This document shows, piece by piece, positions 2,769 through 13,737 of a DNA stretch of 41,642 bases. This DNA comes from a virus (Duplodnaviria; Heunggongvirae; Uroviricota; Caudoviricetes), in the IMG/VR virus record IMGVR_UViG_2541047897_000010, one strand, 5' to 3'. The number at the start of each line of letters is the position of its first letter. Position 1 is the first letter of the stretch. The position numbers were made by a program, and so were the translations under genes. Under the pieces are notes generated by a model. The model was not told where the DNA came from. It saw nothing but the letters and a program-made list of their open reading frames with translations, and made no database searches.

Positions 2769-3130
2769 TATGCTCCAGCCTCCGGTGCTTTTGGCATTAC
2801 TGCCCAGTGAGTGATGTTGACGTTTTCAAGGTCCCCGACCTGAAATATCCACTGCCATTCTCCGGTTTCTTTTTGCCCCCATGTATACCAGAGAGAACGC
2901 CAGCCAATCAGCCAGCCTTCTCCATTAGCATCAAATAACAGAACACTTTCATTCGCTGGCGGCAGTTCAGCTGACACTGGTATTACTTTGTTTTCCAGTG
3001 CTGCACATTTAGCTTCAAGCGCATCAAATTTACGCACCAGGTATTCAGCATCCGTTTCATTCACTTTCAGATCTCGCGGTACACATTTCCCGCGAAGAAA
3101 TCCTTCCATTTCGAAAACATTCATGCGCAT
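2768..3130 (-). CDS. DUF551-like hypothetical protein (CPS-53 YfdS-like by position and length)
   Basis: 120-aa ORF with Trp-rich C-terminal region (GWLIGW...WYTWGQ); overlapping stop/start with upstream gene. Confidence 0.5.
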   Translation of the reverse strand: MRMNVFEMEGFLRGKCVPRDLKVNETDAEYLVRKFDALEAKCAALENKVIPVSAELPPANESVLLFDANGEGWLIGWRSLWYTWGQKETGEWQWIFQVGDLENVNITHWAVMPKAPEAGA

Positions 3131-3657
3131 TTGCGTAACTCCGATAATTCGTTAAAGCGTTCCATAAACATCCCGTAGGCATGGCCTGGAGCCAGTGGAA
3201 TCACGTTGAACATCTCTGTTGCCGGGATACCTTCCAGTACAGGCCAGAAAGAGCCATCATCAAGCCCGAGATCGCGGCGTTCGGTTGCCAGCATGATGAG
3301 ATCGGCATATTTCACGGGCGTACTCATAACCGGTGGTAACCCGTATTTCTCACGGATTACGGCGTCTATTTTTTCTTCCATCCGTTTATAGTCAGGAAGA
3401 AGGCGTTTCAGTGGTGCGGGAATGTCCTGGCAATACGCTTCTGTTGCATCATGCATTAACGCTTCAAAAGCAAATTCCTGCGGCACCAGCTGGCTGCAAA
3501 GAACCGCATGTTGGGCGACGCTGTAGAAGTGCGAAAGATGACCGGCAAAGCGACAGATATTTGAAAGGGAAACCGCGATATCGTTAATATCGATGTCGTC
3601 TTTATTTATCCTGTCATAATAAAAATGCTTCCCGGAAAAAGTTTTAATAAATGACAT
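3121..3657 (-). CDS. yfdR: HD-domain phosphohydrolase (YfdR-like 5'-deoxynucleotidase)
   Basis: HD motif (ALMHDATEAY) and upstream His (FAGHLSHF); start chosen at MSFIKTF (ATG 3655-3657) giving 178 aa; ORF track extends to a GTG at 3684. Confidence 0.6.
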   Translation of the reverse strand: MSFIKTFSGKHFYYDRINKDDIDINDIAVSLSNICRFAGHLSHFYSVAQHAVLCSQLVPQEFAFEALMHDATEAYCQDIPAPLKRLLPDYKRMEEKIDAVIREKYGLPPVMSTPVKYADLIMLATERRDLGLDDGSFWPVLEGIPATEMFNVIPLAPGHAYGMFMERFNELSELRKCA

Positions 3658-3784
3658 TTTGTTTTCCACGTATATGCGCTGCACCGCGCTGAATTCTGCT
3701 AAAAAGAATCCCTCACCATCCGGTGATTATTGAGTTAATTACGTTTCCATAAATGCCCCCGCAGGGGCATTTGCAGTAATGAAA

Positions 3785-4609
3785 TCAGGCGGTGAAAGTA
3801 CCAATAAAGGTTTCTACTTTGCTGTCTTTGAATTTCTCAACAAGCAGATCACGAAATTCGTTAGCCATTTCTTCCTGCACCGCTTCCAGCTGAATAATGC
3901 GCAGAACCAGTACAGGACGATCGCCAGTGATAATGCTGAGGCGTAATTTAAACGGACGTTCTTTCAGACCTTCAAACGGAACGCATTTAAATTCAAATGC
4001 CACTGGCATAATGTCTTTGGTCTTCGCTTCGACAGACTCCATCAGGGAGCGTTTGCCGCTGAAGTCATTGTCTTCAAAATCAGCGGTCTGGTTCGCTTCA
4101 ATTGTGATTTTACGGATCGCCGCAGCCGCTTTGGTTGCCTGAATGGCGTCACCATTAGCATCAAAGCCCACAAGGTAGTCGGCCCAGTCTTCAATCCATT
4201 CTGCCAGTGACTTCTGGGAGTTACGCTCGCCATTAACAGACAACAGAGCAGAGAACGGTGCTGTCTTTTTCAGTTTGAGAGTGGCGGTGTTATCTGCGTG
4301 ACCTGGTTCATCAATAGTACCCAGGTTAAGCACACTGACGGCTCGCATATTATCGGCATCGATAAAGCAGCGGGTGCCTTCATCTGCAAGATCTTTAGAA
4401 TAACGGGTAAAGTCATCGATGCTGGCAGTGGAAAGTGCACCACGGAAACGGAAACGATTTAAATTAAATTTTTCCAGATCATGAATGCGGAAATTCTCAG
4501 GCAATGCCACAGCATCGGCACCAATCTTACTGATAATTTCATTAACACCCTGAGCAGAAATAAGGGCATGGATTTGATTAATTGCGGTTGCGTCTAAGTT
4601 CTGAGACAT
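3785..4609 (-). CDS. yfdQ: DUF2303 family protein (YfdQ-like)
   Basis: 274-aa ORF, GAGGA SD; length and sequence recalled as matching K-12 CPS-53 YfdQ. Confidence 0.55.
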
Positions 4610-4674
4610 AATAAGTCCTCACTATATAAAGATATTCAGTGATGAGATAAATAATCAGTTTATTAAGAACGATA

Positions 4675-5037
4675 TTAATGACCTGCTGCGCGGAGTTTTC
4701 CGTCAGGTTCACCGGCAAGAGTCAGTAATTGTCCCTGGTCTTCCTGCAGAATAGTCAGGCGGCCACCGCGATTGACATACATCGGCGTTTCGGTGGTGTC
4801 TTCTTCGGAAATTTTCCCGCGGTTAGTCGGGCGAACATATGAGAGTTTGTGTTTGATTTTCACACGGTTCTCATCAAATGGTTCGATTTCCAGGTTGAGC
4901 GAGACCTTACCTTTGGTTTTCGTGTTCATCACACCGGAAGCGACTTCACTGAGAACTGCGCCGATTTTGGTTTCAAATACGCCGCCGTCCAGCTCCCCGA
5001 TAAATGCCTGCACATCAGTACTGCGTTCGCTAGCCAT
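4675..5037 (-). CDS. Hypothetical early protein (YfdP-like); internal start chosen
   Basis: ATG at 5035-5037 preceded by AGGAG (7-nt spacing); 120 aa; longer ORF to 5223 lacks an SD and crosses hairpins. Confidence 0.5.
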   Translation of the reverse strand: MASERSTDVQAFIGELDGGVFETKIGAVLSEVASGVMNTKTKGKVSLNLEIEPFDENRVKIKHKLSYVRPTNRGKISEEDTTETPMYVNRGGRLTILQEDQGQLLTLAGEPDGKLRAAGH

Positions 5038-5085
5038 TTTGCTGCTCCTCATCATATCGACCCTGCAAGGTCGGTTAGTTTCTCC

Positions 5086-5174
5086 ACAAAACAGAGAAGA
5101 ACACCTGCGGTGGCAGCCGCCCGGATGGATTGGGTTATGAGCCCGTCGTCCGGTGATGCTCTTCTCTGTTTTGT
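5086..5174 (-). promoter_or_regulatory. Long RNA hairpin in early-left leader (15-bp stem ACAAAACAGAGAAGA / TCTTCTCTGTTTTGT)
   Basis: Perfect 15-bp inverted repeat 5086-5100 vs 5160-5174 with about 59-nt loop, upstream of first early-left gene. Confidence 0.4.
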
Positions 5175-5220
5175 AAAAAGAGCGGTACCAGCCGGAAGCA
5201 AGTGTACAAACTGGTACCGC
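5172..5220 (-). terminator. tL-like rho-independent terminator in the early-left leader
   Basis: 10-bp stem GCGGTACCAG/CTGGTACCGC (5182-5191, 5211-5220) followed on the minus strand by UCUUUUUA. Confidence 0.45.
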
Positions 5221-5651
5221 CAAAGCAGTGGCTGTTGTGGTGACCGGTGCTGATCTCCGGCTTGCGGTTATTTCAGACTCTCACGGGCGTTTAATTGCCC
5301 CGCCGAACAGCTCTTTTCCGCAATAGCTGCAATGTCTTTCGCGCATCAGCCTGCGCATTCACCACAACGCTGAGAGCACTTAGCCAGTTACGGCACCACA
5401 CTTTGTCGCGGTTCCATAAATGCCCTCATCGTTGCACCCTGGTCTCTTCCCAGGTGTCAAACCGAACCGCCACGCTGGTTAGGCGTCTTATCAGCATCAT
5501 CATTGACTTGCACATTCCGGCTACCTGGTTTGTTTGCCCGAGCAAGGAGTGGATTGTCCCCTTTAACGTCCCCAGACCGCTAACGACGCATGTGCCATAC
5601 GCCGTGTTACAACCAAATTTTGTTTAATCTTGCCTGTGACATGTTTCTTTT

Positions 5652-5668
5652 AGATACATTATGTATCT
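5652..5668. promoter_or_regulatory. Perfect 17-bp palindrome, candidate left operator (OL)
   Basis: AGATACAT-T-ATGTATCT just beyond the cI 3' end and terminator. Confidence 0.35.
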
Positions 5669-5688
5669 CAAGGGTACATTGTCAAGTA

Positions 5689-5712
5689 TAAAAAAACCTG
5701 CCGAAGCAGGTT
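5689..5712 (-). terminator. Rho-independent terminator of cI
   Basis: On minus strand: ACCTGC-TTCG-GCAGGT stem-loop followed by seven U; 12 nt after cI stop. Confidence 0.6.
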
Positions 5713-5723
5713 ATAAATATTGA

Positions 5724-6398
5724 TTAGGCCTTTATTTTGTATCTTCTTGGTTTTCCTGAGAAAATTACTGTACCAATTATAGAGCAATTACCGTTGATCT
5801 TAATGTAAGGTTCAGGCCAGTTTGGGTTTAATGCTTTGAGGTAACGCTGTGTTCCATCTTCTATCAACCGCTTAAAGGTGGTTTCGCCTGTATCGTGCAT
5901 CAATGCAATAACGTCGTCACCGTGGCAGGCAGGGACTTCAGGATCTACAAAAATCATGTCTCCCGGGCGGTACTCATCAATCATTGAATCACCAATCACC
6001 CGCAAGATATAAGTCATTTCGCCACAGGGTACAGGGCAGGGATAAGTTTCTGCTGTGCTCAAATCAACCTCAGAATAGCCAACTTCTTTCCATGCTCCGG
6101 CCTGTACCCATGATATGACAGGGACTAACGTTATTTGTTTGTTAGTAATTGAAACATCAGGTTTTTTTGTGATGTTTGTTGTCTGGTGTTCTTGATCAAG
6201 CCATCCGACAGGCAGGTCGAAACATTTTTCGATGTGCCGTGCCATGCTGTCACCGATATTTTTAGTAGCACCATCTCCCATAAACCTGCTGGTCTGGGTT
6301 GGCTCGCGATCAATCATGGTGGCAAAGGAAGAATTCCCGCCAACACCATCTCTCAGTTTTCTGGCGTTAGACCGCCGGATGTCATGGACTGTTTTCAT
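5724..6398 (-). CDS. cI: CI-type prophage repressor (HTH plus S24 LexA-like autopeptidase domain)
   Basis: 224 aa; C-terminal S24-like region (VIGDSM...GD.I.VD); divergent to cro-like gene. Confidence 0.75.
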   Translation of the reverse strand: MKTVHDIRRSNARKLRDGVGGNSSFATMIDREPTQTSRFMGDGATKNIGDSMARHIEKCFDLPVGWLDQEHQTTNITKKPDVSITNKQITLVPVISWVQAGAWKEVGYSEVDLSTAETYPCPVPCGEMTYILRVIGDSMIDEYRPGDMIFVDPEVPACHGDDVIALMHDTGETTFKRLIEDGTQRYLKALNPNWPEPYIKINGNCSIIGTVIFSGKPRRYKIKA

Positions 6399-6414
6399 AA
6401 CGAAATTAAAACCT

Positions 6415-6433
6415 TTGTACCGATAGGGTACAA
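6415..6433. promoter_or_regulatory. Candidate right operator palindrome
   Basis: TTGTACC-GATAG-GGTACAA inverted repeat in the cI-cro intergenic region; GGGTACA half-site also present near 5671. Confidence 0.4.
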
Positions 6434-6438
6434 GTATC

Positions 6439-6466
6439 TTGAAGGTTCATCTCAATCATGTAATAT
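6439..6466 (+). promoter_or_regulatory. Candidate PR-like promoter for cro
   Basis: -35 TTGAAG (6439-6444), 16-bp spacer, -10 TAATAT (6461-6466), about 23 nt before cro ATG. Confidence 0.35.
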
Positions 6467-6488
6467 GTATATCGGAGGTACATATTGT

Positions 6489-6689
6489 ATGAAAGCGTAT
6501 TGGGACTCTTTAACCAAAGAACAGCAGGGCGAGTTGGCCGGAAAAGTTGGCTCAACACCAGGCTACTTACGGCTGGTTTTCAATGGTTATAAAAAAGCCA
6601 GTTTTGTGCTGGCTAAAAAACTTGAGCAATGCACGTCAGGTGCAATTACGAAATCTGACTTAAGACCGGATATCTATCCGAAAGATTAA
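6489..6689 (+). CDS. cro: Cro/YdaS-like HTH regulator
   Basis: 66-aa ORF, GGAGG SD 9 nt upstream; C-terminal DLRPD motif recalled for YdaS/Cro-like family; divergent from cI. Confidence 0.6.
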   Translation: MKAYWDSLTKEQQGELAGKVGSTPGYLRLVFNGYKKASFVLAKKLEQCTSGAITKSDLRPDIYPKD

Positions 6690-6720
6690 CAGAACACCTT
6701 CAATTTTTAACCACAGAACG

Positions 6721-7284
6721 ATGAGGCTAACCGTGGGTAAGCATCACTGGAAAGTAGAAAAACAGCCTGAGTGGTACGTGAAAGCTGTCAGAAAAACTAT
6801 CGCGGCGTTGCCGGGGGGTTACGCTGAAGCTGCTGAGTGGCTGGATGTAACAGAGAACGCTTTATTCAACCGCCTTCGTGCAGATGGCGATCAGATTTTC
6901 CCGCTGGGATGGGCAATGATTTTACAGCGCGCGGCTGGCACTCACTACATTGCGGATGCTGTCGCACAGTCTGCTGGTGGGGTGTTTGTATCGCTTCCTG
7001 AAATTGAGGAAGTAGAGAACGCCGATATAAACCAGCGCCTGCTGGAAGTCATCGAACAGATCGGGAGTTACTCAAAGCAGATTCGTTCGGCAATCGAAGA
7101 TGGGGTAGTGGAGCCACACGAGCAGACAGCAATTAATGATGAGTTGTATCTGTCAATTTCGAAGCTCCAGGAGCATGCAGCACTGGTCTACAAAATCTTT
7201 TGCGCTCCAGAAAAGAGTGACGCCCGCGAGTGTGCAGCTCCGGGCGTCGTGGCGTTTTGTGTCTGTGGAGAAACTAACGCATGA
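6721..7284 (+). CDS. YdaT-like / CII-like regulatory protein (tentative)
   Basis: 187-aa ORF immediately after cro-like gene; family assignment from position and memory only. Confidence 0.4.
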   Translation: MRLTVGKHHWKVEKQPEWYVKAVRKTIAALPGGYAEAAEWLDVTENALFNRLRADGDQIFPLGWAMILQRAAGTHYIADAVAQSAGGVFVSLPEIEEVENADINQRLLEVIEQIGSYSKQIRSAIEDGVVEPHEQTAINDELYLSISKLQEHAALVYKIFCAPEKSDARECAAPGVVAFCVCGETNA

Positions 7285-13673: not shown

Positions 13674-13716
13674 ACGATGGGCTTTGTATGTCTGCCGTTA
13701 ACGAAATCATAACAAA

Positions 13717-13737
13717 CCTCGCTTCGGCGGGGTTTTT
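13717..13737 (+). terminator. tR'-like rho-independent terminator (target for Q antitermination)
   Basis: CCTCGC-TTCG-GCGGGG stem-loop followed by TTTTT. Confidence 0.5.

Follow-up and report, generated by a model that had tools for sequence, protein, structure and literature searches.

How a lambdoid phage without an N gene expresses its early-left operon is the question raised by the 41,642-nucleotide stretch of phage DNA analysed here (IMG/VR record IMGVR_UViG_2541047897_000010; hereafter, the window), and a 2025 paper on a related N-less phage poses the same one. The gene cI (5724-6398) is separated from the ATG of the first early-left gene (5037) by 686 bp, and an earlier note, made from the sequence alone, had described this gap as a leader of about 680 bp. 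The figure holds for the distance between the genes, but the transcribed part is only ~614 nt long, on the minus strand, since the early-left promoter PL lies at 5685-5658. The flanks of the leader are composed of the following elements:

5695..5712, minus strand: terminator of the cI transcript, directly upstream of PL
5658..5685, minus strand: early-left promoter PL, TTGACA (5685)-N16-CATAAT (5658), agreeing with the consensus at 11 of 12 positions, with the -10 element at 5663-5658
5644-5658: operator palindrome GATACATTATGTATC, overlapped by PL
4675..5050, minus strand: Shine-Dalgarno sequence GAGGAG (5050-5045) and the first early-left gene (YfdP-like, phrog_204)

Phages SfV and Ayreon have a terminator annotated at the position of the first element, and in Ayreon a promoter is annotated at the place homologous to PL. 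Half-sites akin to those of the operator palindrome are also present between cI and cro. The YfdP-like gene is followed by genes for a YfdQ-like protein, a dNMP phosphatase and an exonuclease; the excisionase gene (1078-1377) comes last in the operon, ~4 kb downstream of the leader. No promoter-like site was found between 5180 and 5040, that is, between the leader terminator described below and the genes; together with the distal position of the excisionase gene, this suggests that read-through of the leader terminator is needed. On the right side, no strong intergenic terminator was found in the PR operon before ~13.7 kb, so that a single, left-side antitermination element would suffice.

Transcribed from PL, the intergenic stretch ahead of the first early-left gene forms a non-coding leader that is densely folded. 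As the earlier note had it, there is no credible ORF of at least 60 aa on its minus strand: the ORFs there are 24-49 aa long, and the sole long one extends the first early-left gene upstream, in frame, from a TTG start. In the 5′ to 3′ direction the leader consists of D1, the stem P6 with its variable insert, the tRNA-like D3, an intrinsic terminator, a long hairpin, a small hairpin and the ribosome-binding site. The terminator and the two hairpins nearest to the first gene had been reported in the earlier note, and all are confirmed on the minus strand; together with a further feature of the long hairpin, they are:

5175..5220, minus strand: intrinsic leader terminator, a 10-bp G+C-rich stem with a 19-nt loop and a U tract
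5086..5174, minus strand: long hairpin (LH), a 25-bp stem with a branched top
5131..5145, minus strand: CGGGCUCAUAACCCA, capping one branch of LH and mimicking the anticodon stem-loop of the initiator tRNA
5058..5073, minus strand: small hairpin, between LH and the ribosome-binding site

The terminator and both hairpins are kept across genera, and the fold goes beyond chance (whole leader against shuffles, z = -4.9), with covariation of the terminator stem and LH among homologues; LH was assessed in 18 homologous leaders from ~10 genera. The terminator arms are GCGGUACCAG (5220-5211) and CUGGUACCGC (5191-5182), followed by UCUUUUU (5181-5175). Its stem covaries in homologues from other genera, and the 3′ RACE end of sRNA-17, a published RNA discussed below, falls in the U tract (PMC7719688). 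The rho-independent terminator proposed by the earlier note at 5182-5220 thus combines a G+C-rich hairpin with a U tract directly behind it, both on the transcribed strand, and serves as a 3′ end in vivo. A pattern scanner had overlooked it, its 19-nt loop being longer than usual. Attenuation-type control, also suggested in the earlier note, may operate at this site. Likeness to a T-box (UGGUACCGC in the terminator) was considered and dismissed, as it is confined to the terminator stem of this lineage and the Rfam T-box model gives no match. In some relatives the terminator loop contains a mini-ORF, MKIMF, whose frame is not conserved, and the stretch is more likely RNA structure than an ORF.

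In homologues, pairing of the LH stem reaches 94% and 11 of its pairs show changes on both sides, values attained by none of 500 shuffles. The anticodon-arm mimic CGGGCUCAUAACCCA is identical at 14/14 positions to nucleotides 29-42 of E. coli tRNA-fMet, and its GGG/CCC stem and CUCAU loop are kept in most homologues. At the position of the small hairpin, homologues have a hairpin of unlike sequence.

Right about these hairpins, the earlier note overlooked the most conserved part of the leader, which lies upstream of the terminator. This part, D1, is organized as follows:

5438..5604, minus strand: D1, ~170 nt, five helices and two pseudoknots
5604-5599 with 5589-5584, minus strand: helix P1
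5580-5573 with 5527-5520, minus strand: helix P2
5567-5565 with 5534-5532, minus strand: helix P2a
5525-5507, minus strand: invariant 19-mer GGUAGCCGGAAUGUGCAAG
5486-5483 with 5475-5472, minus strand: helix P4
5454-5450 with 5442-5438, minus strand: helix P5, with loop GAAGAGA
5595-5590 (GCACAU) with 5515-5510 (AUGUGC), minus strand: pseudoknot PK1
5480-5477 (AACC) with 5463-5460 (GGUU), minus strand: pseudoknot PK2

In an alignment of 39 sequences less than 94% identical to each other (A2), 97% of the cells are paired and 14 pairs are changed on both sides (0/500 shuffles), while in control alignments that were slid at most 44% are paired. The covariance model of D1 (R2) matches the window at 5609-5411 with 147.9 bits. 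Several G-U pairs occur in nearly every sequence and would give A-C mismatches on the opposite strand, which places the D1 RNA on the strand of the PL transcript. The 19-nt core is invariant and the junctions are conserved, with peripheral stems that vary freely. Judged from sequence, such an invariant core and variable periphery fits binding to a conserved host machine.

D1 begins ~47 nt past the PL start. Like put of phages HK022 and HK639, it is a structured RNA close to the promoter, in an early-left leader whose lambdoid phage has no N-like product, with terminators beyond. The put RNA suppresses terminators in cis by binding the zinc-binding domain of the RNA polymerase beta-prime subunit. 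An HK022 put-like RNA was one of the possibilities raised in the earlier note, along with a covariance search for it, which we ran. The put model (R1), based on eight put sequences with the alignment rebuilt from phage records, scored its positive controls at 97 bits (HK022 putL), 92 bits (HK639 putL) and 57 bits (HK022 putR). With filters off it has no match in 5038-5650, and its best hit in the window (E = 0.19) is at an unrelated place; nor is there a match in 20 related leaders. In all, the search covered the window and 26 loci. Members of the family are defined by stem I (CGGCG/CGUCG) and by the invariant stem II core GGCGGGUUCAGGAUGAACGGCAAU, which is missing from the leader. Helix P1 of D1 and put stem I do share ACGGCG...CAUGCGUCG, including a G-U wobble at the same place, but P1 covaries freely in the D1 family (G-C is replaced by A-U in 18 of the 39 sequences), so this common 9-mer is specific to one lineage. 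In addition, put is less than half as large as D1 and of another architecture, with two stems in ~70 nt against five helices and two pseudoknots in ~170 nt. Membership in the put family is thus refuted by the model, the missing core and the unlike architecture, and the chance that a put RNA is present in the leader is close to nil. The underlying idea persists in the form of another promoter-proximal structured RNA, D1. A second D1 copy in the PR operon, forming a pair like putL and putR, was not found with R2; in HK639, as in this phage, only a left-side copy is annotated.

The P5 hairpin bears on another proposal of the earlier note, a small unannotated N-like peptide, which would act on hairpins such as this one. 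P5 has a 5-bp stem and a conserved purine-rich loop, GAAGAGA, resembling the GAAGA loop of lambda nutL boxB; akin hairpins with GAAAGA loops recur in related leaders, and ORFs of a suitable size class (24-49 aa) exist on the minus strand. None of these ORFs, in contrast, has a Pfam family, an arginine-rich motif or a Shine-Dalgarno sequence, as the proposed search for ORFs below 60 aa showed, and they overlap regions that vary by compensatory base-pair changes and by length changes that are not in triplets. Conservation is therefore that of RNA covariation rather than of codons. No N-like protein was found among the early-left products either, which leaves such a peptide without a candidate and makes it very improbable. 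The small minus-strand ORFs were rejected as genes, as was a plus-strand ORF (5295-5627, hypothetical in mEp460) that has no family and overlaps covarying helices. SfV orf33, located at the place of D1, was likewise rejected as an N analogue: its product is acidic and has no arginine-rich motif or Pfam family.

D1 is found in 1376 of 5426 complete E. coli genomes, about a quarter, and also in phages P1 (upstream of ban), P7 and phiV10, and among Stx2 and epsilon15-like phages. No annotation of it exists, and in some cases spurious 'hypothetical protein' calls cover it. An Rfam 15 scan of window positions 4500-7000 on both strands (E ≤ 10) gave only chance-level matches, none of them over D1, P6, D3 or LH, and a scan with the D1 copies of P1 and phiV10 and the copies of H2 (a second element, introduced below) from related leaders L033 and L022 gave tRNA matches only (E ≤ 1). 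Elsewhere, D1 often lies 0-120 nt downstream of repressor-type early promoters. Terminators with a GC-rich hairpin and a U-run occur downstream of D1 in most sequences inspected, but their frequency is not discriminating, the opposite strand being equally positive (98/101 vs 94/101). D1 is repeatedly bordered by tRNA genes, with tRNA-Arg on its 3′ side and tRNA-Ile on its 5′ side, and in P1 it is located between tRNA-Ile and ban. The module D1-P6-tRNA-terminator precedes many unrelated cargo genes.

Between D1 and the leader terminator, the window contains:

5365..5434, minus strand: long stem P6, CAACGAUGAGGGCA (5434-5421) with UGCUCUCAGCGUUG (5378-5365)
5420-5379, minus strand: D2, the variable insert closed by P6
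5234..5368, minus strand: D3, tRNA-like cloverleaf closed by GUUGUGGUGA (5368-5359) with UCACCACAAC (5243-5234)
5176..5369, minus strand: published sRNA-17, 193 nt (PMC7719688), corresponding to D3 and the leader terminator

P6 is a stem of 14 bp with one A-G mismatch. Its arms are kept among relatives, with compensatory changes in the variants, and the insert is replaced or ranges from ~40 to >200 nt. The LH arms (ACAAC..RAGAGCAU and GUGCUCUY..GUUGUG) resemble those of P6, and by this likeness LH is a paralogue of P6, a second stem of its type. With the 5′ end of sRNA-17 in its base, P6 is probably a processing-type stem, with a putative role for RNase III, an enzyme whose substrates are uninterrupted duplexes of roughly two helical turns. 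The minimum free energy fold of D3 is a four-arm cloverleaf, and in homologous leaders a genuine tRNA-Arg(UCU) begins exactly at the GUGG equivalent to the D3 start. No tRNA was detected in the window by ARAGORN, and none at D3 by Rfam. D3 is thus tRNA-like and not a tRNA: it has only the layout of a cloverleaf, at the position held by tRNA-Arg(UCU) in related leaders.

The RNA sRNA-17 was described in E. coli K1 RS218 as a species of ~193 nt, detected by RACE and Northern blotting, with deletion phenotypes (Front Microbiol 2020, PMC7719688). The published primers and Northern probe all match the window exactly: the full-length primers map to 5176-5207 and 5337-5369, and the 5′ RACE primers and the probe have plus-strand sequence, which puts the RNA on the minus strand. 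The authors treated it as a separate sRNA gene under ArcA regulation, and their 'promoter' fragment for it maps to 5369-5618 (PMC7719688); here, this fragment corresponds to D1 and P6. Moreover, the published qPCR amplicon maps to 5223-5618 and requires a precursor starting upstream of D1. Accumulation of sRNA-17 in cells implies that transcripts stop at the leader terminator and are cut, or begin, at the P6/D3 boundary. It thus seems that sRNA-17 is the tail of the PL leader, tRNA-like in its fold and formed by termination and processing. In comparison with the published account, sequence and strand are the same, but the RNA is here the 3′ part of the leader rather than a separate gene, and its body, folded as a tRNA-like cloverleaf, takes the place of the real tRNA-Arg found in related phages. 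The earlier note did not see that 5369-5176 is a published sRNA or that the long hairpin is probably one of two paralogous processing-type stems.

Our best guess as to what the leader does, offered tentatively and on sequence evidence, is antitermination by D1, which would be a new antiterminator RNA acting in cis. Early-left genes, including that of the excisionase, would be expressible only from PL transcripts that pass the leader terminator. D1 would act in cis to make RNA polymerase resistant to termination, possibly together with host Nus factors, and would thereby do the same job as HK022 put by means of an unrelated, larger RNA. The two long stems, P6 and LH, would be RNase III-type processing sites that part stable RNAs from the mRNA, and their processing would set translation of the first early-left gene. 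The promoter-proximal position of D1, between PL and the terminator, speaks for antitermination. Against it, relatives keep the same terminator and LH in leaders lacking D1, no terminator stands between D1 and ban in P1, the window is devoid of a consensus boxA, and accumulation of sRNA-17 indicates that termination is efficient, at least in uninduced lysogens. A bolder form of the proposal, in which D1 is the founder of a new class of structured phage RNAs that bind RNA polymerase and/or Nus factors and antiterminate without a phage protein, is possible but doubtful. Such a class would cover lambdoid, P1-like and epsilon15-like temperate phages of Enterobacterales.

The tRNA genes flanking D1 are no less compatible with a stable RNA cut out of the transcript than with a cis-acting element. 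The main rival explanation is that the leader is a stable-RNA locus, yielding processed trans-acting ncRNAs with passive, partial read-through to the early-left genes. A precursor of ~475 nt from PL or leaky transcription would be cut at P6 and the tRNA or tRNA-like module to give D1-D2 and sRNA-17, and the terminator would be the natural end of that gene. The discrete size and deletion phenotypes of sRNA-17, together with the upstream precursor needed by the qPCR amplicon, agree with this scenario, as does the D1-P6-tRNA-terminator module ahead of unrelated cargo; tRNA genes adjoin D1 in different phages as if tRNA-processing enzymes set its ends. GOLLD and ROOL, which are large RNAs of phages and are located beside tRNAs or contain them, offer an analogy. 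On the other hand, the locus has no promoter of its own in the window besides PL, which is repressed in lysogens, and RNA-seq in the table of the sRNA-17 paper itself gives just a few reads per 10 million (PMC7719688). The P1 copy lacks its own terminator, and expression of the excisionase after induction is left unexplained. We regard a stable-RNA locus as a possible, if uncertain, account.

It is also conceivable, though improbable, that D1 is a sensor, either riboswitch-like or a tRNA-sensing aptamer, that sets termination or processing in the leader according to a host signal. Invariant junctions and pseudoknots beside variable peripheral stems are an aptamer-like pattern of conservation, and the surroundings are tRNA-themed, down to the initiator-tRNA anticodon-arm mimic in LH. 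Yet ~220 nt, including two other modules, separate D1 from the terminator downstream, no alternative pairing of D1 with the terminator is seen, no Rfam riboswitch matches even at E ≤ 10, and the downstream contexts are too varied for the logic of a single ligand.

Leaders of relatives that have the same terminator and LH but lack D1 carry instead an invariant RNA element, H2. It is positioned roughly +10 to +20 nt relative to PL promoters of diverse kinds, and in many cases a hairpin and then a perfect rrn-type boxA, GCUCUUUAACAA, come after it; the perfect boxA is present in related leaders L005, L007, L009, L022, L023, L027 and L114. From H2 and this boxA, leaders of the D1 and H2 types appear to be given over to RNA- and Nus-based control of elongation. 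In the leader of the window, no match to UGCUCUUUAACAA within three mismatches was found for a consensus boxA of the GCUCUUUA type. A boxA-like octamer, UGCUCUCA (7/8 positions), is located in the P6 3′ arm, where it is base-paired and not kept in all P6 variants; the LH 3′ arm, too, has a boxA-like octamer that is paired and not universally kept. Over 587 nt, 99.3% identity is shared with the leader of mEp460, which belongs to a collection of phages that have been described as Nus-dependent. In the CPS-53 prophage of E. coli K-12, the leader is lost from the yfdO-yfdP gap.

Growth of HK022 does not depend on Nus factors. The mEp phages, in contrast, are described as Nus-dependent. In being a long untranslated structured transcript, with long stems bracketing excised RNAs and tRNA or tRNA-like modules inside, the leader resembles the rrn leader and spacer, with their boxB-boxA-boxC antitermination, RNase III processing stems and embedded tRNAs, and a perfect rrn-type boxA after a hairpin is present in relatives; unlike rrn, it has no rRNA and contains an intrinsic terminator inside the unit, and involvement of Nus factors and SuhB is putative. 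As in the lambda N leader, a long hairpin of the size and shape of an RNase III substrate lies directly upstream of the first early-left ribosome-binding site, but the downstream gene is not N, the hairpin carries the initiator-tRNA anticodon-arm mimic and there is no nut site. GOLLD and ROOL (RF01998 and RF03087; the Rfam scan took in all families) are likewise multi-domain phage ncRNAs beside tRNA genes, with variable inserts that are sometimes tRNA-like, whereas D1 has no Rfam match, is much smaller, and occurs in Enterobacterales hosts in the position of an early-operon leader. Finally, the P4 CI RNA and the P1/P7 C4 RNA are small stable immunity RNAs of temperate phages, processed from early-operon leaders by way of tRNA-like signals. 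P1 and P7 carry both C4 RNA and D1, the P1 D1 being at the ban locus and not at immI. The Rfam C4 family has no match in the leader, and complementary target sites were not identified.

Many lambdoid phages are devoid of an N gene, including Stx2-converting phages and the mEp460/LLS group. In the leader studied here, which has no put RNA, concrete and mutable RNA elements, defined by coordinates, helices and pseudoknots, stand where an antiterminator is expected. D1 is new, common and unannotated: about one in four complete E. coli genomes has it, as does P1, a model phage. The regulation and deletion phenotypes of sRNA-17 need to be re-read, given that the published 'promoter' is a structured RNA. 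A connection of early phage leaders with the biology of tRNAs, so far unexplored, is indicated by the anticodon-arm mimic and by the exchange of a tRNA-like domain for a real tRNA-Arg. If D1 does antiterminate, it would be a second, structurally unrelated answer to the problem solved by put, and together with the equally undescribed H2 it would account for early-left expression in a large group of N-less lambdoid phages.

The early-left leader, the minus-strand PL transcript between cI and the first early-left gene, was shown to be made up of a series of conserved RNA structures, with transcription in the PL direction. The features concerned are as follows.

6489-6689, plus strand: cro
5724-6398, minus strand: cI repressor gene
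5712-5695, minus strand: cI terminator, directly 3' of the cI stop codon
5685-5658, minus strand: PL, TTGACA(5685)-N16-CATAAT(5658), near-consensus, overlapping an operator-like palindrome; start near 5651
5604-5438, minus strand: D1, a ~170-nt double-pseudoknot RNA
5434-5365, minus strand: P6, a long stem downstream of D1 helix P5, with arms CAACGAUGAG(R)GCA and UGCUCUCAGCGUUG, closing a variable insert
5368-5234, minus strand: D3, at the GUGG following P6, a predicted four-arm cloverleaf closed by GUUGUGGUGA/UCACCACAAC
5220-5175, minus strand: leader terminator, stem 5220-5211 with 5191-5182, then UCUUUUU
5174-5086, minus strand: long hairpin
5145-5131, minus strand: anticodon-arm mimic CGGGCUCAUAACCCA, at the tip of one branch of the long hairpin
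5073-5058, minus strand: small hairpin
5037, minus strand: ATG of the first early-left gene
13714-13735, plus strand: strong right-arm terminator, AAACCUCGC-UUCG-GCGGGGUUU followed by a U-rich stretch, the first convincing intergenic one

The terminator, long hairpin and small hairpin lie exactly where the earlier note had placed them, and its observation is confirmed. The gap indeed lacks an N-like gene, but the transcribed leader, from near 5651 to the ATG at 5037, measures ~614 nt and not the ~680 nt then given. As also claimed, no minus-strand ORF of 60 aa or more has a credible start: those present encode 24-49 aa and, like the one exception, an in-frame extension of the first gene that starts at TTG, belong to no Pfam family; an N-like peptide, one of the explanations offered for early-left expression, seems to us highly improbable. 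The leader contains no N, no put (the HK022-type antiterminator RNA) and no consensus boxA, and no promoter-like site was found between its terminator and the early-left genes, where YfdQ-like, dNMP-phosphatase, exonuclease and excisionase genes lie downstream of the first gene. The whole leader folds much more stably than shuffles (z = -4.9). Among 18 homologous leaders, drawn from about ten genera, 94% pairing was seen in the 25-bp stem of the long hairpin, where 11 pairs were changed on both sides. The whole structure outscored each of 500 shuffles and every slid control; the terminator stem of homologous leaders covaries as well.

Two side observations concern the terminator region of related phages and prophages, whose loci (L numbers) have their own coordinates. 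The terminator loop carries an insert, CUUC...GGAGGAUGAAGAUAAUGUUCUG, conserved in several genera (L008, L009, L027, L028, L030, L031, L032; columns 30-90 of leader alignment A5), which resembles a Shine-Dalgarno sequence plus a mini-ORF of non-conserved reading frame and may be an extra hairpin. In Providencia rustigianii (L030), a 61-aa ORF (2621-2806) whose sequence is clearly CsrA-like lies in the early-left leader just 5' of the conserved terminator, at the place occupied in other phages by D1 or by the element H2 described below.

The seemingly empty part of the leader, D1, is its most conserved part. BLAST searches with the leader found 5605-5441 nearly invariant in Kosakonia and Phytobacter prophages with unrelated flanks, the exact 19-mer GGTAGCCGGAATGTGCAAG taken from this stretch occurs in >120 IMG/VR contigs, and a 191-nt D1 element is present, annotated in none, in 1376 of 5426 complete E. 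coli genomes. The 79 phage records with D1 include lambdoid (mEp460, cdtI, Ayreon, 2H10, Stx2c and Stx2a phages, 1720a-02), P1-like (P1, P7, D6, RCS47, SJ46) and epsilon15-like phages (phiV10, TL-2011b). Its structure of five helices (P1, P2, P2a, P4, P5) and two pseudoknots was tested on an alignment of 39 copies, all <94% identical: 97% of cells are paired, 14 pairs are changed on both sides, none of 500 shuffles did as well, and slid controls reached at most 44% pairing. The first pseudoknot joins the P1 loop GCACAU with AUGUGC of the 19-mer and, being invariant, has perfect conserved complementarity as its sole support. The second, between the P4 loop CACC and a downstream GGUG, covaries (CACC/GGUG versus AACC/GGUU), also when the sister sequences L022 and L024 are compared. 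Since several near-universal G-U pairs would turn into A-C if the opposite strand were the RNA, the RNA is on the strand of the PL transcript. A D1 covariance model found a single copy in the window (5609-5411, 148 bits) and none in its PR operon, nor in HK022, HK639 or SfV, and Rfam 15 gave no D1 match in the window, phage P1 or phiV10 copies. D1 belongs to no known family; that it is a sensor or riboswitch we consider improbable. 'Hypothetical protein' CDSs cover the leader in mEp460 (mEp460_036, mEp460_037) and Ayreon (SJJBTUD_0036, SJJBTUD_0037). These leader-spanning CDSs (window 5295-5627, plus strand; L003 2573-3126; L001 2573-2988) overlap D1, P6 and D3, have no Pfam family and are likely mis-annotated structured RNA.

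The earlier note had also suggested a put-like RNA. A covariance model built with published stems from HK022 putL, putR and six relatives, including the annotated HK639 putL, regained positive controls at 57-97 bits and gave no match in the leader with filters off, nor in related leaders, and put membership was rejected. D1 and put stem I do have ACGGCG...CAUGCGUCG in common: in this lineage, D1 helix P1 (5584-5604) equals stem I of HK022 putL (L004, ~4316-4237, minus strand) in CGGCG/CGUCG with the same G-U wobble, and the two are also alike in the preceding A and in CAUG before the 3' strand, the remainder of both RNAs being unrelated. Because the D1 family shows free covariation in P1 and lacks the invariant put core, we take this likeness for a coincidence specific to one lineage or, at most, for a sign of very distant kinship, and give put membership even less credence than an N-like peptide.

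Downstream of D1 the leader is modular. The P6 insert differs wholly between phages (40 to >200 nt, sometimes with tRNA-like T arms), the arm variants show compensatory changes, and an invariant GUUGUGG follows. In many phages (phiV10, L036, L038, L051, L126) a genuine tRNA-Arg(UCU) begins exactly at this GUGG. In the window no tRNA was found, and D3 was rejected as a true tRNA, its fold being only cloverleaf-like. In phage P1 and relatives, 10 nt separate the end of tRNA-Ile(CAU) from the D1 model match, and the gene behind D1 is ban, which encodes a DnaB-like helicase; in P1 and P1-like phage-plasmids (L158 = AF234172, 1421-1783; L156, L157) no terminator lies between D1 and the ban start, and even the very detailed P1 record leaves D1 without annotation. 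Genes 3' of the module are diverse (YfdP-like, Ban, gp49/66-family protein and others). Epsilon15-like phages (L159 = phiV10, 2997-3893) have a cassette of D1, P6, tRNA-Arg(UCU) and a gp49/66-family gene, inserted moron-like and antisense to the morphogenesis operon; the phiV10 CDS PhiV10p04 (locus 3248-3499), which overlaps a tRNA-Arg left unannotated on the other strand (3242-3318), is probably spurious. The window has two copies of the 14-mer GGGCAUUUAUGGAA (minus-strand sense), in the P6 5' arm region (5412-5425) and directly 3' of a GC-rich hairpin behind the YfdQ-like gene (3745-3758); it may be a module boundary or recombination linker.

Part of this region has been published as 'sRNA-17', a 193-nt RNA from an mEp460-like prophage in E. 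coli K1 that was mapped with RACE and Northern blotting (PMC7719688); the paper does not assign it to the PL leader and mentions neither D1 nor the tRNA-likeness. Every primer of the supplement matches the window exactly. The primers for 5' RACE and the probe for the Northern blot have plus-strand sequence, which puts the RNA on the minus strand, and as the full-length primers map to 5176-5369, it consists of D3 and the leader terminator. Since the 3' end of this RNA is the U tract, the terminator is active in vivo. The 5' end of the RNA (5369), which lies at the base of the P6 stem and 4 nt before the equivalent of a tRNA 5' end, would be a processing site. The reported 'promoter' fragment (5369-5618) is D1 plus P6, and the qPCR amplicon (5223-5618) can come only from a precursor starting upstream of D1, i.e. 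from PL.

The long hairpin (5086-5174), with arms ACA(A/C)AAC..AAGAGCAU and GUG(C/U)UCU..GUU(U/G)UGUGG, is a second P6-type unit paralogous to P6 (5365-5434), the common form being ACAAC..RAGAGCAU [insert] GUGCUCUY..GUUGUG. P6-type units and P5-like hairpins (GAAAGA or GAAGAG loops) are repeated several times, on either side of D1, in some related leaders (L038, L051, L055, L090, L100, L125, L129). The long-hairpin region also has an 84% identity match under annotated ymfH in another genome. The mimic CGGGCUCAUAACCCA equals, over 14 nt including the GGG/CCC pairs, the anticodon stem and loop of the initiator tRNA from E. coli. It is kept in most homologues, lies ~100 nt 5' of the first early-left start codon, and its loop CUCAU could pair with AUGAG at the Shine-Dalgarno region.

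In other genera D1 is mostly absent from leaders 5' of YfdP-like genes, and the terminator, long hairpin and small hairpin are kept. Many different PL promoters of these relatives are followed at ~+10 to +20 nt by an invariant element, H2, consisting of CGAACAGGCAGGACGCCCACGAAGUAGCCGCC, a 4-bp covarying stem around GCRUAUGAAGA, and GGAUGAUUCGC; it matches neither Rfam nor the put model and may be the counterpart of D1. After H2 there is often a hairpin (AAAAAGCGCCC..GGACGCUU) and a perfect rrn-type boxA, GCUCUUUAACAA, an arrangement with boxB ahead of boxA as in rrn operons, here in phages without an N gene. The window has neither H2 nor consensus boxA.

H2: L033 2475-2567; L002 (SfV) 3407-3499, minus strand; L005 1756-1848
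H2, further loci: L012, L013, L017, L020, L022, L023, L027-L029, L050, L117, L123
Perfect boxA: L005 1863-1874; L007 1863-1874; L009 1925-1936; L022 1465-1476; L023 1820-1831; L027 1526-1537; L114 3364-3375

The mEp collection has been described as Nus-dependent, and mEp460, belonging to it by name and origin, would itself be so. In E. coli K-12 CPS-53 (L166, 2748-3104) the yfdO-yfdP gap lacks the whole leader and has iteron-like repeats GATTTTGACGGGTCAG instead.

Our tentatively preferred reading is that early-left expression, excisionase included, would depend on read-through of the leader terminator, with D1 as the putative cis-acting antiterminator and the long hairpin and P6 stems as candidate RNase III-type processing sites. 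What makes D1 the best candidate is that it lies close to the promoter, has an invariant core and is paralleled in relatives by the H2-boxA arrangement. According to the main rival, which we rate as unlikely though far from negligible, the locus is chiefly a stable-RNA gene yielding D1 RNA and sRNA-17, whose ends come from tRNA-type processing and its own terminator, with passive read-through only; the tRNAs flanking D1, its terminator-less context in phage P1 and the existence of D1-less relatives speak for it. In the right arm there is no strong intergenic terminator before 13714-13735, which is probably the late-leader terminator on which Q acts, and the need for help appears limited to the left operon.

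That this phage group lacks N was already known. New, as judged from open-access text, are D1, a widespread and well-supported RNA class never annotated, the modular leader with its P6-type stems and its exchange between a tRNA and a tRNA-like module, the revised view of sRNA-17, the mimic of the initiator-tRNA anticodon arm and H2 of the relatives. If the read-through reading holds, early antitermination here would be RNA-based and protein-free with leader processing, which is of a known kind; what would surprise specialists is an undescribed double-pseudoknot RNA in a quarter of E. coli genomes and in phage P1. How lambdoid phages without N run their early-left operon, a long-standing gap, is now directly testable.
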